From the IMG/VR virus record IMGVR_UViG_3300034161_000018, positions 160,001 through 224,000 of that record: DNA of 64,000 nucleotides; one strand, written 5' to 3'. The DNA comes from a virus. Lineage: Duplodnaviria; Caudoviricetes. The position numbers and the translations under genes are program-made. The notes below the pieces were generated by a model. That model was not told where the DNA came from and searched no databases. It saw only the letters and a list, made by a program, of their open reading frames with translations. Shown here piece by piece: positions 36,931 through 41,500 of this stretch (position 1 is its first letter; each line of letters starts with the position of its first letter).

Positions 36931-38817
36931 ATGAAACTACGAAAACGCGGGGCTGGTGCTGCAATGCACACGGCAACTTCAACCGCCGCGCCGAAAACCC
37001 AAACCAATGCCGGTATCTTTACCGGTCGGCGTTTGGGGCCGGAACGTGACGAAATGGACGACAAAATGTCGGCGACGGCAGCGGTTGGCAATGGTATGAA
37101 AAACACCAGTGTCGCGCAGTTGCCAATCGAAATCGACATTGATCCACTGCTGAAAGATATTGTGTTCAGCGAAGACCTTGAACAGAAAAAACTGGTCATG
37201 CGTCTGTTTACCGACATTTACTACAACGACCCGACTGCCGGTTCGATTGTGGATATTAAGTCGAACCTGATGTTTTCCGAATTCAACCTCGGCGGCATTA
37301 TGGACAAAAAGGTCGCGCAGGCATTTGGCGAATCTTTGGAAAACCTAAACATCCGCAACCTGATGCCACACGCATTGGTTGACCACGATGTAAAAGGTGC
37401 ATTCGTTGGCTCGTTGCTGTACAACGAAAAGAAGAAAACGTTTGTCGATGTGATGCCACACGGTTACGAGAACTGCAAAGTTGATATGCTGCCGTTCTTC
37501 AACCAAGACCCGTTGATTACCGTCGCGTTTCCGGACGACGTGCGGGCGACAATGGGCGTGGACACTCCGCGACTGAAAGCATTGCGTGAGTATTTGGGCG
37601 CCGAAGTAATTGCACAAATCAGCAATGCCGCGCTGGAACTGGATGCGAAATCGACAATCTATTTGCCGCGTCAAGCATTCACAAACAGCACGGGCGTTTC
37701 GTATTACCGCCGCATTCTGCCGATGTATCTTTTGGAGAAAAACCTTTTCCGGGGAACGCTGGTTGAATCGGCCCGTCGCCAACGCGGTATTCTGCACCTG
37801 ACGCTTGACGGCGGCGGGGAATGGGAACCGACGGTTGCCGACTTTGAAATGATGACGCAACTTTTCCAAAATGCTGACGCCGATCCGTTGGGTGCAATCA
37901 TTGCAACCCGCTCAGGGATTAGCGCAGACGAACTTCGCCAAGGCGGCGATTTCTGGAAAGTGACCGACGTTTGGGATTCGACGCTTTCAATGAAACTGAA
38001 AGCACTCGGGATTTCCGAAGCGTTCTTGAGTGGTGACGCAACATTCTCCAACCAAGACACTTCTATGTCGTTCTTCATTGACGGCATTCGTGGTCAGCGT
38101 GATTTGTTTGTTCGCAAAATGCTGTACAACCGCATCTTCCCGTTGATTTCTGCGTTGAACGGTTTTGTAATCGGTCAAAACGGAAAGCTGACTCGACGCG
38201 GTAACATGCTGGACAAGATCGACCCGATGGGCAACATCGGCATTCTCAATGACGGTTCGCGTTTGCTGATTCCGTCTGTGCATTGGGAAAAAACTTTGAA
38301 GCCGGAAGGCGATCAGCAATACATGGATATGTTGCAAGCACTTACCGAAAAAGGTGTGCCTGTTCCAATTCGTGCAATGGCTGCCGCTGCTGGTTTCAAC
38401 ATCGAACGTCTGCTCGCCGATCAACAAGGCGACAAAGACCTGATGGAAGAATTGTCGAAGTACAACAAAGAAATCGCAGACATTAAAGCGAAGTACGGCC
38501 CTGCTGATGGTGGCGACGACGGTACTGCAATGGCTTCGGCTTTGGCAGGCGCACGCTATTTGCAAAACATTCAGAACGGTTCGCGCTCCGATGTATTGGC
38601 GCGCAATAACGGGAAAATGTTGGGCTTGGCATCGCGTGATTTCGGCGAAGACTTTGAAGTTGCTGGCATGACACACGACGGTAAACGCCGCTACCTGCAC
38701 GATCAGAAGAAAGGGCAGGAACGCGCAAACCGTAAAATCGTTAAGCAACTGCAATCTATTCGTTTGGCAAACAACACGCATTTGTCCCGAATGACCACTA
38801 CCCCGTTTAAAGGGTAA
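36931..38817 (+). CDS. probable portal protein
   Basis: 628 aa, two genes after TerL; YYNDPTAGSIVDI; assigned mainly from synteny and size. Confidence 0.6.
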   Translation: MKLRKRGAGAAMHTATSTAAPKTQTNAGIFTGRRLGPERDEMDDKMSATAAVGNGMKNTSVAQLPIEIDIDPLLKDIVFSEDLEQKKLVMRLFTDIYYNDPTAGSIVDIKSNLMFSEFNLGGIMDKKVAQAFGESLENLNIRNLMPHALVDHDVKGAFVGSLLYNEKKKTFVDVMPHGYENCKVDMLPFFNQDPLITVAFPDDVRATMGVDTPRLKALREYLGAEVIAQISNAALELDAKSTIYLPRQAFTNSTGVSYYRRILPMYLLEKNLFRGTLVESARRQRGILHLTLDGGGEWEPTVADFEMMTQLFQNADADPLGAIIATRSGISADELRQGGDFWKVTDVWDSTLSMKLKALGISEAFLSGDATFSNQDTSMSFFIDGIRGQRDLFVRKMLYNRIFPLISALNGFVIGQNGKLTRRGNMLDKIDPMGNIGILNDGSRLLIPSVHWEKTLKPEGDQQYMDMLQALTEKGVPVPIRAMAAAAGFNIERLLADQQGDKDLMEELSKYNKEIADIKAKYGPADGGDDGTAMASALAGARYLQNIQNGSRSDVLARNNGKMLGLASRDFGEDFEVAGMTHDGKRRYLHDQKKGQERANRKIVKQLQSIRLANNTHLSRMTTTPFKG

Positions 38818-38834
38818 ATGGTAAAACGGAAACG

Positions 38835-38879
38835 GCTACCCTAATTTATCCATACTGGTTGAGCTAGGGTAGCTTTTTT
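38835..38879 (+). terminator. intrinsic terminator after portal gene
   Basis: GCTACCCTA...TAGGGTAGC-TTTTTT. Confidence 0.75.
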
Positions 38880-38881
38880 CA

Positions 38882-39185
38882 TCGGTAGAGCCTTTTCTGT
38901 GGTTGTCGCCAACTTGAAGTTGGGTGACTTCAACTTGCCGAAACGAATAGATTTACCTCGTCCATAAGTCTGTTCCCGCAGACGCTCGGCTGCCCTAGCT
39001 CGGGCCAGTACCGAATTCTCTTTTTCGCCGCCTTTTGGTCGGACTACTCCTGAGAAGTTAAATCCTAAATCGCGCTGCTAACGAATGTAATGTGCTAGGA
39101 AGCGAAAGCAGTCCGTTGTCACATTGCTTTCTGAGCGGCAAAACGTAACTGGAACTTTTCGCGCGACCTGAACCTAAAAGGCGGC
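38882..39185 (+). ncRNA. candidate structured ncRNA A (multibranch domain plus 159-nt rod)
   Basis: no ATG-initiated ORF of 60 aa or more; many hand-folded stems with G-U pairs on + strand; GAAA tetraloop. Confidence 0.55.
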
Positions 39186-39236
39186 ACCTATTTCAAAACT
39201 GTAAACATGCTGCATACACTCACCGAGGAATTTCAA

Positions 39237-39611
39237 GTGGAAAGCGTCGCAATCCCCGCCAGTCAATACGAAAAGAGTTTTGTTGTCGGCCTGTTTGAAG
39301 GGCTTGCAGTAGAAGTTGTTTTCTTGAAGCACGGCGATGTGCCCGTCTACATTAACGAATCCGGTGAATCGGCTGTTGCTGAAACGGAACTGGTGCAAAT
39401 CACGCTTCCAACTTCCGAAGGTTCCGAAAAGATGGCGCAGACTCTGCGTGACGCGTTGCTGAAATTGCGTTCGCCAGATTCCAACACTGTGTTCATTCGT
39501 TCGGCAGACTTTGCGGAAATCAACAACAAGCTGTTTACGTTCGCCCAACTCTGCGTCGGCTTTGTCCACGCCAAATCTGTAACGGAAAATGAATCTGCAA
39601 CCTCGCAATAA
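39237..39611 (+). CDS. hypothetical protein
   Basis: GTG 39237 after GAGG (track start 39207 abuts the AAACTGTAAAC motif). Confidence 0.7.
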   Translation: MESVAIPASQYEKSFVVGLFEGLAVEVVFLKHGDVPVYINESGESAVAETELVQITLPTSEGSEKMAQTLRDALLKLRSPDSNTVFIRSADFAEINNKLFTFAQLCVGFVHAKSVTENESATSQ

Positions 39612-39633
39612 GTTTGACGACGCCGGTGACAAA

Positions 39634-39744
39634 ATGCTCAATGTTTTACTGAGCGCGCCGCCGTTATTTATGGAAGCGCTTTGCGCAATCATTCTGGTGG
39701 CCGGTTATTTCTTTTGGCCGGTTTCACAAATCTGTAAATACTGA
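39634..39744 (+). CDS. 36-aa hydrophobic peptide (not in ORF track)
   Basis: MLNVLLSAPPLFMEALCAIILVAGYFFWPVSQICKY; no clear RBS. Confidence 0.4.
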   Translation: MLNVLLSAPPLFMEALCAIILVAGYFFWPVSQICKY

Positions 39745-39745
39745 A

Positions 39746-40148
39746 TATGGGAAGATGCTTTCCCGAAAGAGCACTAACGGGTGCTGTCCTTCATCCGTTA
39801 TTGCGCCTGCGCTTCGGTGCCGCTCGTTGTTCCTGAGAGTTGGTTCTAGTAGTCGCCATAGGTGATCCGATTAGCGCCCAGCGTGAAGTGGTGCTATAAA
39901 AGCTAAACAACTTCCTCCGCAACCAAAGCGTTACCTTTACCTCCCTGCGTTTCTTAATGTCCTAAGAAGCGTAGTAAAAAGGACGTGACTTTCGTTTGTG
40001 CGGTAAACCCACGGGAATAGGGCCGTGTGGTCGGCTGTTACATTTTTGAAATGATCGTGCGTGATTTGGTCGATTTGCCGGGCGTAAGCGGCTCATTGAA
40101 TTCGTTTCCCCAAGCCGCGTTCGGAATCCCCACCAGCGCGGCTTTTTT
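39746..40148 (+). ncRNA. candidate structured ncRNA B (about 400 nt)
   Basis: TGTAAATA upstream, several G-U-containing stems, UUCG loop, terminator at 40112-40148. Confidence 0.55.
40112..40148 (+). terminator. intrinsic terminator
   Basis: AAGCCGCG...CGCGGCTT-TTTT. Confidence 0.65.
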
Positions 40149-41117
40149 ATGTCTGAAAAATGGAGTGTCACTATTATGGCCGGTTCTGAATCTGCTGCAA
40201 TTGAGCAACTCGACGAAAAAGAAATCTATCACAAGCAAGCGCGTGCAGGTAATCGCATCAAGCAAGTGATGGCAGCGCTGCATATGGAAATCAAAGGCTT
40301 GGATCAGCGGCGCACACAACTGGAACGCCAGTACGCGCAGCTTGAAGAAGCTTTGGAACTACAACAATTCTCGCCGCTGAATATCGGCAAGCGTGATTTG
40401 CCGGAACGCCCAAACAATCACCTCGGCCTGTGCAACGAAATTCCAATGCCCGGTGGCAGTGGTGACACGCCAATTGAATTCACTTTCAATGAAGCTGCGC
40501 GGGACGCATTCTTTGGCCCGCCGATGTTTGAAAGTGGCAAACACATTGACGACTGGCCTGCATCGACAATCGAAACTCCGGTCGAAGTAAAAGAACCTGA
40601 TTTCCTACCAGTGTTCCAGCTTGGCCCGCAAGACAAATTCTATCCACACACCATGCGCGGCGCAGATTGGAATGATGCACTGAATTTCGGTTGCAGCTTT
40701 CCGGAAGACACCGAAGGTTACTGGCGACACAATCCACAAAAGCCCGCTGCCGACGTTTACGAAAAACTTCCGTGGCCGGTTGCTCGCGACATTCCGGGTT
40801 ACAACCCGTTGGATTTCCACAAGCGTATGCGCGACGTTGAAAACCATTCAGCGACCGAGCGTAAAGTTTATCGCGGTATGACAATGCACCGCTGGCATGG
40901 TGGAACATTGGGCAATGCTGAATTCTGGCGTGGTTCATTCCGTTGGCCGGATTCGTATGGCAACTACATTTCCGAAGGCGTGCCACCGTCGCGACATTTC
41001 TTCCGTTTCATCATGACGGAACACGCGGAAATCTTCCCGAAACATCCAACGCTTTCCAATGAAGAATTCAACACCGTGTTCAATTGGTTGCCGAATATGA
41101 AACGAACGCCGGAATGA
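40149..41117 (+). CDS. hypothetical protein, N-terminal coiled coil
   Basis: 322-aa ORF; start codon uncertain. Confidence 0.75.
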   Translation: MSEKWSVTIMAGSESAAIEQLDEKEIYHKQARAGNRIKQVMAALHMEIKGLDQRRTQLERQYAQLEEALELQQFSPLNIGKRDLPERPNNHLGLCNEIPMPGGSGDTPIEFTFNEAARDAFFGPPMFESGKHIDDWPASTIETPVEVKEPDFLPVFQLGPQDKFYPHTMRGADWNDALNFGCSFPEDTEGYWRHNPQKPAADVYEKLPWPVARDIPGYNPLDFHKRMRDVENHSATERKVYRGMTMHRWHGGTLGNAEFWRGSFRWPDSYGNYISEGVPPSRHFFRFIMTEHAEIFPKHPTLSNEEFNTVFNWLPNMKRTPE

Positions 41118-41138
41118 TCCGGATTAAACTGTAAACTG

Positions 41139-41177
41139 AAACCGTGCATTCCAACATTCCGGAGTGCGCGGTTTTTT
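41139..41177 (+). terminator. intrinsic terminator
   Basis: AAACCGTGCATTCC-AACATTCC-GGAGTGCGCGGTTT-TTT. Confidence 0.8.
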
Positions 41178-41197
41178 CGTTTTTGGAGAATTTCATT

Positions 41198-41500
41198 ATG
41201 TGGGAACAAATGAGTGCGTCGCAGCAATTGCTCTACATTTGCAATGCTGCCGGAAACAAAAGCGACCGAATTGATATGGCAATGATTTGGCTGGTCGAAG
41301 AAAACATGCGCCAAGACGTGCGTGTGCGTTATACCGATTTGGTAAGCGCCGAAGCTTCGCTGGTCACGTATCGCGGTTTGTCTGACGAACAAATTCAATC
41401 GGTCGATACTTCGCAGCGCTACTATTTCAACATGCTGCACATGCCAGCCGAAGTTAAGGCCCGTTGTGCATGGCACGCGATTGAAAATGTTGATCCGTGA
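41198..41500 (+). CDS. hypothetical protein
   Basis: ATG 41198 after GGAG. Confidence 0.7.
   Translation: MWEQMSASQQLLYICNAAGNKSDRIDMAMIWLVEENMRQDVRVRYTDLVSAEASLVTYRGLSDEQIQSVDTSQRYYFNMLHMPAEVKARCAWHAIENVDP

Follow-up and report, generated by a model that had tools for sequence, protein, structure and literature searches.

Introduction

Large RNAs with a conserved tertiary-style architecture are rare, and the earlier cases led to ribozymes, riboswitches and RNA cages. GOLLD and ROOL are phage-borne RNAs of several hundred nucleotides (nt), which have a multi-helix fold with pseudoknots, conserved unpaired blocks and no known partner. The element described here shares these features. It lies on the + strand at positions 39747–40148 (approximately 400 nt) of a 64,000-nt stretch of DNA, called the window below, which corresponds to bases 160001–224000 of a phage genome that is 274,896 bp long and carries direct terminal repeats (IMG/VR record IMGVR_UViG_3300034161_000018). 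It is unlike GOLLD and ROOL in that it is matched by neither covariance model, is smaller, is not located beside tRNA genes and was found at nine loci of one clade.

Other described systems resemble the element in part. In the late leader of phage lambda (PR′-tR′, the '6S' transcript), which depends on Q antitermination, a phage promoter is followed by a strong terminator before late genes that need read-through, as in the present layout. The lambda late leader is not known to be a conserved folded RNA, whereas 29 of the 49 core pairs covary in the present element, and no Q-like protein or site was identified here. The leaders of the riboswitch, T-box and attenuator types also consist of a folded domain, a terminator and then the Shine–Dalgarno (SD) sequence of one gene, and a candidate alternative pairing between the last hairpin and the terminator is a further likeness. 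The element differs from them in that it belongs to no aptamer family, has lost the antiterminator in three of the nine homologs, would be a long leader and precedes a gene of no known family.

The C-rich anti-SD small RNAs (sRNAs) RsaE and RoxS of Firmicutes likewise have several C-rich motifs and a terminator-type 3′ end, and an invariant CUCCC of the present element is perhaps unpaired. However, the element is four times larger, one of its tracts is unconserved and located in a pseudoknot, its hosts are probably proteobacterial, and it has no RsaE match. The pRNA of phi29, which is roughly 120–170 nt long, is a phage-encoded structured RNA beside a head-assembly gene; here the neighboring gene is that of the portal, and there are loop-to-strand complementarities that could in principle be intermolecular. 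The size and genome position are different, and no Rfam pRNA match was found. As in the 3′-end sRNAs of the DapZ and MicL type, a promoter motif overlaps the end of an upstream open reading frame (ORF) and the terminator is common with the mRNA; those are short seed-pairing RNAs, whereas the element is 400 nt long, has a tertiary-style structure and is wholly outside the ORF.

In this paper, the conservation, predicted fold and genetic context of the element are described. With slightly better than even confidence, we hold that it represents a new family of large folded noncoding RNA (ncRNA) that acts through its structure or a partner, the gating of the downstream gene being a by-product.

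Results

Conserved fold

Starting from homologs of the protein encoded downstream of the element, syntenic contigs were reached in IMG/VR, ENA and the Logan assemblies. They gave nine distinct versions of the gap, that of the window included, all from jumbo phages of a small clade related to Pseudomonas phage PaBG. The gene order in all nine loci is portal, a gap of about 420 nt, a gene of about 124 amino acids (aa), an ORF of about 50 aa, a gap of 380–460 nt and a gene of about 305 aa. In the window, the element occupies the gap located 3′ of the portal region genes, between a 51-aa membrane ORF (39589–39744) and a gene of 313 aa, in a genome that is approximately 94% coding according to a crude ORF map. 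It is present as one copy per genome.

The original prediction, made from the window alone, was a structured + strand RNA of about 400 nt bounded by TGTAAATA and a terminator, at 39733–40148. The + strand of this region folds better than its dinucleotide shuffles, with a z score of −3.1 and 0 of 100 shuffles as good, while the z score of the − strand is −1.4. RNAalifold applied to the full alignment gives 80 pairs, among which 32 have changes on both sides. In the core of approximately 190 nt (39908–40096), on which the covariance model R1 was built, both-side changes are seen in 29 of the 49 predicted pairs over the nine sequences, and 91.6% of the cells are canonical, compared to 35–41% when the 3′ partners are slid by 1–3 columns. 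The observed covariation score of the core was reached by none of 500 shuffles. The homolog L049, which was found later and was outside the training set of R1, was recovered by the model with 123 bits (E 1e-33) and shows further compensatory changes in the helix P4. G-U pairs occur at many positions in most or all sequences, which indicates that the + strand is the RNA strand. The covariation, the G-U pairs, the anatomy from promoter motif to terminator and the lack of an Rfam match support the prediction of a large structured RNA on the + strand. Both boundaries are located as predicted.

As listed in Table 1, the layout consists of a 5′ hairpin, a variable domain and a conserved core of approximately 230 nt, which contains the pseudoknot PK1, the helix P4 around P5 and P6, and the P7 block, and is followed by the terminator. 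The 5′ hairpin P1 is nearly invariant, with a single change from G-C to G-U. The variable 5′ domain is 65–115 nt long and holds one to three hairpins per homolog, where neither the sequence nor the shape is conserved, as judged from the separate folds of the homologs. The stem of P3 covaries (AU/UA, GC/CG and CG/UA), as do P5 and P6; in the P6 domain, helices 4–7 include 12 pairs with changes on both sides. In P4, five of the 10 pairs are changed on both sides, and 98.9% of the cells are paired. The P7 block is the most conserved block of the alignment.

Four of the originally proposed stems, GGGAAG/TTTCCC (P1), TAGCGCC/GGTGCTA (P3), the 12-bp CTGCGTTTCTTA/TAAGAAGCGTAG (P5) and CACGG/CCGTG (top of P6), are conserved in the homologs. 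The other three, AGCAC/GTGCT, TAACGG/CCGTTA and GCGC-UUCG-GTGC, which were proposed within 39770–39830, fall in the variable 5′ domain and are not conserved as such. The long-range helix P4 and the pseudoknot of the P3 loop were both absent from that prediction.

Table 1. Positions in the window and main properties of the features of the element and its surroundings; blocks without positions are those of alignment A2.
Feature	Position	Strand	Description
Copies of AAWCTGTAAAY	5472, 5561, 5590, 5745, 14679, 15504, 17575, 21714, 27882, 39196, 39729, 41126	+	
Copy of AAWCTGTAAAY	56357	−	
Promoter-like motif	39727–39740	+	CAAATCTGTAAATA; includes TGTAAATA (39733–39740); variant of AAWCTGTAAAY
P1	39749–39764	+	5′-terminal hairpin GGGAAG/loop/CUUUCCC; in 9 of 9 homologs; loop variable
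Linker and variable 5′ domain	39765–39872	+	conserved linker GAAAGAGCA, then P2 hairpins (e.g., 39775–39800)
P3	39873–39895	+	hairpin AGCGCC/GGUGCU; conserved 11-nt loop (C/U)AGCGUGAAGU
PK1, 3′ strand	39910–39920	+	ACUUC (39910–39914) with GAAGU (39885–39889); CGC (39918–39920) with GCG (39881–39883)
P4	39922–39931 with 40059–40070	+	long-range helix closing the core; ACCAAAGCGU with GCGUGAUUUGGU
3-bp helix	39935–39937 with 39979–39981	+	flanks internal loop 5′ of P5
Tract 2	39939–39945	+	ACCUCCC; 5′ side of internal loop between 3-bp helix and P5
P5	39945–39974	+	12-bp hairpin; both-side changes in 10 of 12 pairs
P6 domain	39982–40058	+	stacked helices; invariant CGUUUG (39993–39998); invariant apical loop GGGAAUAGGG (40013–40022)
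P7 block	40071–40093	+	near-invariant CGAUUUGCCGGGCGUAAGCGGCU; short hairpin 40077–40080 with 40089–40092
Pre-terminator motif	40105–40113	+	conserved UUUCCCCAA directly before terminator; in most homologs, degenerate in L037 and L049
Intrinsic terminator	40113–40148	+	9–11-bp G+C-rich stem, C-rich loop, U6–7 tail
Spacer and 313-aa gene	40149–41117	+	spacer AUGYC..UGGAG; SD GGAG (40162–40165); start ATG 40176
Conserved block		+	5′ hairpin GGGAA.../...UUCCC
Conserved block		+	P3 loop YAGCGUGAAGU
Conserved block		+	CAACCAAAGCG
Conserved blocks		+	CUCCC; CGUUUG; GGGAAUAGGGCYG
Conserved block		+	CGUGAUUUGGUCGAUU.GCC...GUAAGCGGCU
Conserved blocks		+	UUUCCCCAA; terminator; spacer UUUUUUAUGYC..UGGAG

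In alignment A2, invariant blocks alternate with variable helices. The constraint falls on blocks and pairing, not on every base.

The prediction had also stated that no family could be assigned, and this agrees with the searches against Rfam 15, whose models included tmRNA, RNase P, 6S, SRP, GOLLD, ROOL, OLE, HEARO, pRNA, EAR, riboswitches, T-box and others. No match was obtained in the whole window at the gathering threshold or in 39400–40400 at E ≤ 10, and the element also remained without a match at E ≤ 1 when seven homolog loci were searched. A phi29-type pRNA would differ in architecture as well. At positions 4360–4459 of the relative L038, between two genes, the Rfam trpB motif gave a sub-threshold match (34.8 bits against a gathering threshold of 59, E 0.3), which is probably a chance match.

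The distribution of the element is narrow. The DNA of the region has no blastn match in cultured phages, a metagenome scan using the portal as the query gave no further close relative, and the 16-nt pattern of the terminator loop gave only chance matches in IMG/VR besides one known relative. Two conserved-block patterns have no match in 185,579 prokaryote species genomes, and in IMG/VR they gave only the known relative. Neither PaBG nor three IMG/VR records of phages with approximately 57–61% portal identity (two complete genomes of about 310 kb and a fragment of 74 kb) gave a credible match to the model R1; a single match of 13 bits at E 0.07 in this search was taken as chance. PaBG has no comparable gap at this locus. 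As far as searched, the RNA family is confined to a small clade of PaBG-related jumbo phages, none of which is in culture and which occur in wastewater, sediment or soil metagenomes. No paper describing the element was found in a search that did not cover the large collection of candidate structured RNAs from phages (Fremin et al. 2023, PMC10690425).

Putative transcription unit

The final codons of the 51-aa ORF overlap with the promoter-like motif CAAATCTGTAAATA. The end of this motif is located 9 nt upstream of P1, and every homolog whose aligned stretch covers the motif has kept it. The pattern AAWCTGTAAAY, of which it is a variant, occurs 13 times in the window, compared to 0.17 expected, with 12 copies on the + strand. 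For the looser pattern AANNTGTAAA in the whole genome, 43 of the 46 matches agree with the direction of the local gene block as read from their positions (27 of 46 in a crude per-match tally), and many copies are located 11–58 nt upstream of ORF starts. Copies also precede the gene of about 124 aa (39196) and directly follow the 313-aa gene (41126). The over-representation, the orientation with the genes and the position before ORF starts suggest that AAWCTGTAAAY is a promoter element of the phage and a candidate consensus for the PaBG-related group. PaBG is described as relying on phage-encoded sigma-70-like factors (PMC7412058). In the window, a sigma-70 promoter scan of 38500–41500 gave no site. 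The string TAATTTA is not enriched in the window (five copies compared to 3.6 expected), and all of its copies are on the + strand.

The intrinsic terminator at the 3′ end, as would be found in an independent ncRNA gene, is kept in all homologs, and its stem shows compensatory changes (GC/AU, CG/UA and UA/AU). It is located 14–28 nt upstream of the SD sequence of the downstream gene, where this SD sequence and the protein start MAGSESA are conserved in all homologs. Since the interval from the terminator to the next start codon holds neither a promoter motif nor a sigma-70-like site, the 313-aa gene would be reachable only by read-through. No terminator-like site was found between the motif at 39196 and the terminator, and an upstream two-gene mRNA should therefore also end with the RNA.

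This arrangement is that of an attenuator or riboswitch leader, in which a conserved structured domain and a terminator precede the SD sequence of the same gene, as is the case in nine of the nine loci. If the element is a cis-acting leader, either riboswitch-like or an attenuator that senses a protein or an RNA, the core would sense a signal, and the released strand of P7 would pair with the 5′ half of the terminator and allow read-through into the 313-aa gene. Besides the close and constant position, in which no promoter motif intervenes, the P7 block (40072–40093) resembles the 3′ arm of the terminator and can form a 16-bp helix with the terminator 5′ half in the window, and the alternative pairing between P7 and the terminator is the best fold in six of the nine homologs when the 3′ arm is blocked. 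However, the terminator arms of L041, L002 and L049 have changed in concert while P7 is invariant, whereby the antiterminator loses pairs, and the antiterminator pairing has no covariation support. A leader of 400 nt would be unusually long, no known aptamer in Rfam matches it, and the gene that it would control is of no known family and is located in a structural block, not among metabolic or transport genes. We give a leader of this kind a real but clearly minor chance.

C-rich tracts and pseudoknot PK1

The original prediction had emphasized two C-rich tracts, CTTCCTCC (tract 1, 39911–39918) and ACCTCC at 39939 (tract 2), as exposed sequences complementary to SD sites. Both tracts are located where they were reported. 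Tract 1, within ACUUCCUCCGC (39910–39920), is complementary to the loop of P3, and this loop-tract duplex can be formed in nine of the nine homologs with energies of −5.8 to −11.7 kcal mol−1. Its compensatory versions are GCAGU/ACUGC in L045, a G·U pair in L041, GCAAAGU/ACUUUUGC in L002, GCAUC/GAUGC in L037 and GCGA/UCGC in L049, while the sequence of the tract drifts among the homologs (CUUUUGC, CUAUCGC, CUGCCUAC and CUUCUUUGAUGC). The pairing that is kept through changes on both strands indicates that tract 1 is one strand of a pseudoknot, where neither the C-richness nor the anti-SD sequence is conserved. For tract 1, the idea of an exposed anti-SD sequence is therefore not supported; base pairing or lack of conservation had been named beforehand as evidence against it.

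Tract 2 shows a different behavior. Its CUCCC (39941–39945) is invariant in the nine homologs, while the flanking helices covary, and it could be exposed in the internal loop. It is also complementary to the invariant apical loop GGGAAUAGGG of P6, 70 nt downstream, with −8 to −12 kcal mol−1 in all homologs. This second pseudoknot, PK2, is a candidate only, because both of its sides are invariant and because the 3-bp helix and the terminal parts of P5 and P6 compete with it.

The tracts would be the active part of the molecule if the element were a trans-acting RNA that blocks strong SD sites of the host or phage with CCUCC-type sequences, in the manner of RsaE and RoxS. The invariant CUCCC in an internal loop between covarying helices, the further C-rich motifs before the terminator and in its loop, and the sRNA-like 3′ end with a hairpin and a U tail are consistent with such a function. 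On the other hand, tract 1 is paired in PK1, tract 2 has a complement within the same RNA, and neither the conserved C-rich tracts nor the conserved G-rich tracts have an extended complement in the phage genome. The size and the tertiary-style architecture of the element also exceed the needs of an antisense seed, and we regard this function as unlikely. The hexamer GGGAGG is depleted approximately seven-fold in the genome, with 19 copies compared to about 134 expected from length alone.

Other explanations

The layout of a promoter, a leader, a terminator and late genes, similar to PR′-tR′ of lambda, would also suit a processive antitermination RNA of the HK022 put or Bacillus EAR type, or a late-promoter leader that depends on a Q-like factor. 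In the former case, the folded RNA would modify the transcribing polymerase so that it passes its own and later terminators, and a second promoter motif located directly before a terminator-like hairpin (41126–41175) is in line with it. The element shows no similarity to the put or EAR models and is three to six times larger, and no antiterminator protein was identified, which makes this explanation quite improbable.

Hardly any more credit can be given to the explanations in which the conserved object is not an RNA but a DNA-level element (protein-binding sites, an origin or a packaging signal) or a small protein gene on the minus strand. Some invariant blocks are without an obvious pairing partner, and minus-strand ORFs of 40–80 aa in several homologs share a short peptide motif. 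However, the compensatory double changes and the G-U pairs that are possible on the + strand only indicate selection at the RNA level. The minus-strand ORFs are alike only where the DNA is invariant, their ends are unconserved, and 1-nt insertions or deletions break the frame in three of the nine homologs (L002, L044 and L049). The nine homologs have no conserved reading frame in common, in line with the original remark that the region has no convincing ORF. The region is also not located at either end of the genome, where the direct terminal repeats lie.

A diverged tmRNA-like molecule, with which the size, the pseudoknots and the terminator loop of the window (UUCGGAAUCCCCACCA, reminiscent of a T-loop plus a CCA end) would fit, is of negligible probability. 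ARAGORN found no tmRNA in either the genome or the window, and the tmRNA models of Rfam gave no match, even with the threshold relaxed to E ≤ 10. Instead of an acceptor stem, a local hairpin is formed by the 5′ end, while the 3′ end is a terminator. The T-loop-like string is unconserved in the homologs, and there is no conserved tag frame. ARAGORN found no tRNA gene in the 275-kb genome either; five tRNAs have been reported for PaBG (PMC7412058).

Neighboring elements and the downstream protein

The portal protein gene (36931–38817) encodes a protein that is 64.6% identical to the portal of Pseudomonas phage PaBG and approximately 57% identical to those of Lu11-type phages. The host of the nearest cultured relative in this comparison is Pseudomonas, and the hosts of the phages that carry the element are probably proteobacterial.

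The portal gene is directly followed by another conserved non-coding region, which extends over 38818–39206 on the + strand, with a core at approximately 38855–39190. Its mean column identity over eight homologs is 74%, and RNAalifold gives 99 pairs, among which 29 are changed on both sides, together with many + strand G-U pairs. No Rfam match to this second RNA was found in the window search at the gathering threshold. The portal terminator (38823–38866) has an invariant loop, CUAAUUUAUCC, and its 3′ arm, UGAGCUAGGGUAGCU, also pairs with GGCUGCCCUAGCUCG approximately 135 nt downstream. Because the strand UGAGCUAGGGUAGCU is shared, the two folds are mutually exclusive. A duplex prediction between this RNA and the element, both at full length, yielded only whole-length duplexes that carry no meaning. 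For the ORF at 39207–39611, which follows, the start is more likely GTG 39237 than ATG 39207; the promoter motif (39196–39206) overlaps ATG 39207, and GTG 39237 with its GAGGA Shine–Dalgarno sequence is conserved in the homologs.

The 313-aa protein (40176–41117) has eight homologs only, all within the clade. It consists of a long N-terminal helix (residues 14–63), a disordered middle part and a C-terminal domain with invariant YRG...HRW.G...WP motifs. It has no Pfam or PHROG match, and Foldseek against the PDB gave no match at E ≤ 0.001 using a poor AlphaFold model (pLDDT, the predicted local distance difference test, of 61). Since neither the flanking small genes nor the 313-aa gene belong to a known family and the homologs of the 313-aa protein are confined to the clade, the two RNAs, the two small genes between them and the 313-aa gene have the appearance of an insert that is specific to the clade and separates the portal module from the baseplate module.

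Downstream of the 313-aa gene, the region 41126–41200 holds a promoter motif (41126–41136), a terminator-like hairpin with a U run (41138–41175), GGAG and ATG 41198. The start of the following gene is probably this ATG (100 aa, as in the homologs) and not GTG 41144. A transcript from the 41126 motif might start inside the 5′ arm of the hairpin and would thereby escape the terminator. The layout, with a terminator directly before an SD sequence and an ATG, mirrors the 3′ end of the element. Far upstream, an intergenic region of approximately 365 nt (5456–5822), which precedes a gene with a start near 5822, holds four copies of AAACTGTAAAC in a span of 285 nt. This region may contain multiple promoters or represent a further non-coding element.

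Discussion

A large folded ncRNA that acts through its structure would be produced as follows. Transcription would start from the phage-type promoter motif at 39727–39740, and the RNA would also arise as the 3′ end of the two-gene mRNA from upstream. Most transcripts would stop at the terminator, which would give a stable RNA with hairpin caps at both ends. This RNA would work by its fold, by binding a protein or as a scaffold or catalyst, and not by antisense pairing of exposed C-rich tracts, while the terminator would in addition restrict the next gene to read-through transcripts. A stable folded RNA agrees better than an attenuator with the large size, with the pseudoknot, with the number of unpaired blocks that are invariant and with the hairpins at both ends.

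Several points weigh against this interpretation. The structure rests on nine related sequences, so that a part of the covariation counts reflects shared ancestry; nine such sequences are enough for a conserved structure but not for tertiary contacts or function. The overall nucleotide identity of the element is not higher than that of the flanking genes. No run recorded as RNA was found to contain the stretch, and the promoter, the ends of the transcript and the stability of the RNA are deduced from the DNA. Contigs of relatives occur in four wastewater runs labeled 'RNA-Seq cDNA', for which RNA as the source is a guess and two of which are probably DNA, and such contigs carry no information on transcript ends, strand or level. 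The action through the fold is likewise a proposal. The position upstream of one gene in all nine loci and the alternative pairing of P7 and the terminator in six of them fit a cis-acting leader equally well.

In a more specific form, the large folded ncRNA favored here would be a new class of large pseudoknotted RNA, namely a ribonucleoprotein, a scaffold or a ribozyme that serves virion assembly or host takeover in late infection. With the RNA at 38855–39190, it would then make up a cassette of two RNAs that is specific to the clade and located between the portal and baseplate genes, and its loop complementarities would possibly be intermolecular. This form is put forward tentatively, as we judge its chances to be appreciable but well below even. 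If it is true, PK1 and the complementarity of CUCCC to GGGAAUAGGG might join molecules into multimers, similar to pRNA or the assemblies of ROOL and GOLLD.

In a 2026 review of jumbo phages, non-coding RNAs are mentioned once, for phiKZ (PMC13282480). The locus described here suggests a candidate promoter consensus, AAWCTGTAAAY, and a compact layout in which promoter motifs are located directly at terminator hairpins. The two adjacent structured RNAs of approximately 330–400 nt, with strong covariation and located in the structural gene block of PaBG-related phages, offer an entry to RNA-based functions of giant phages.

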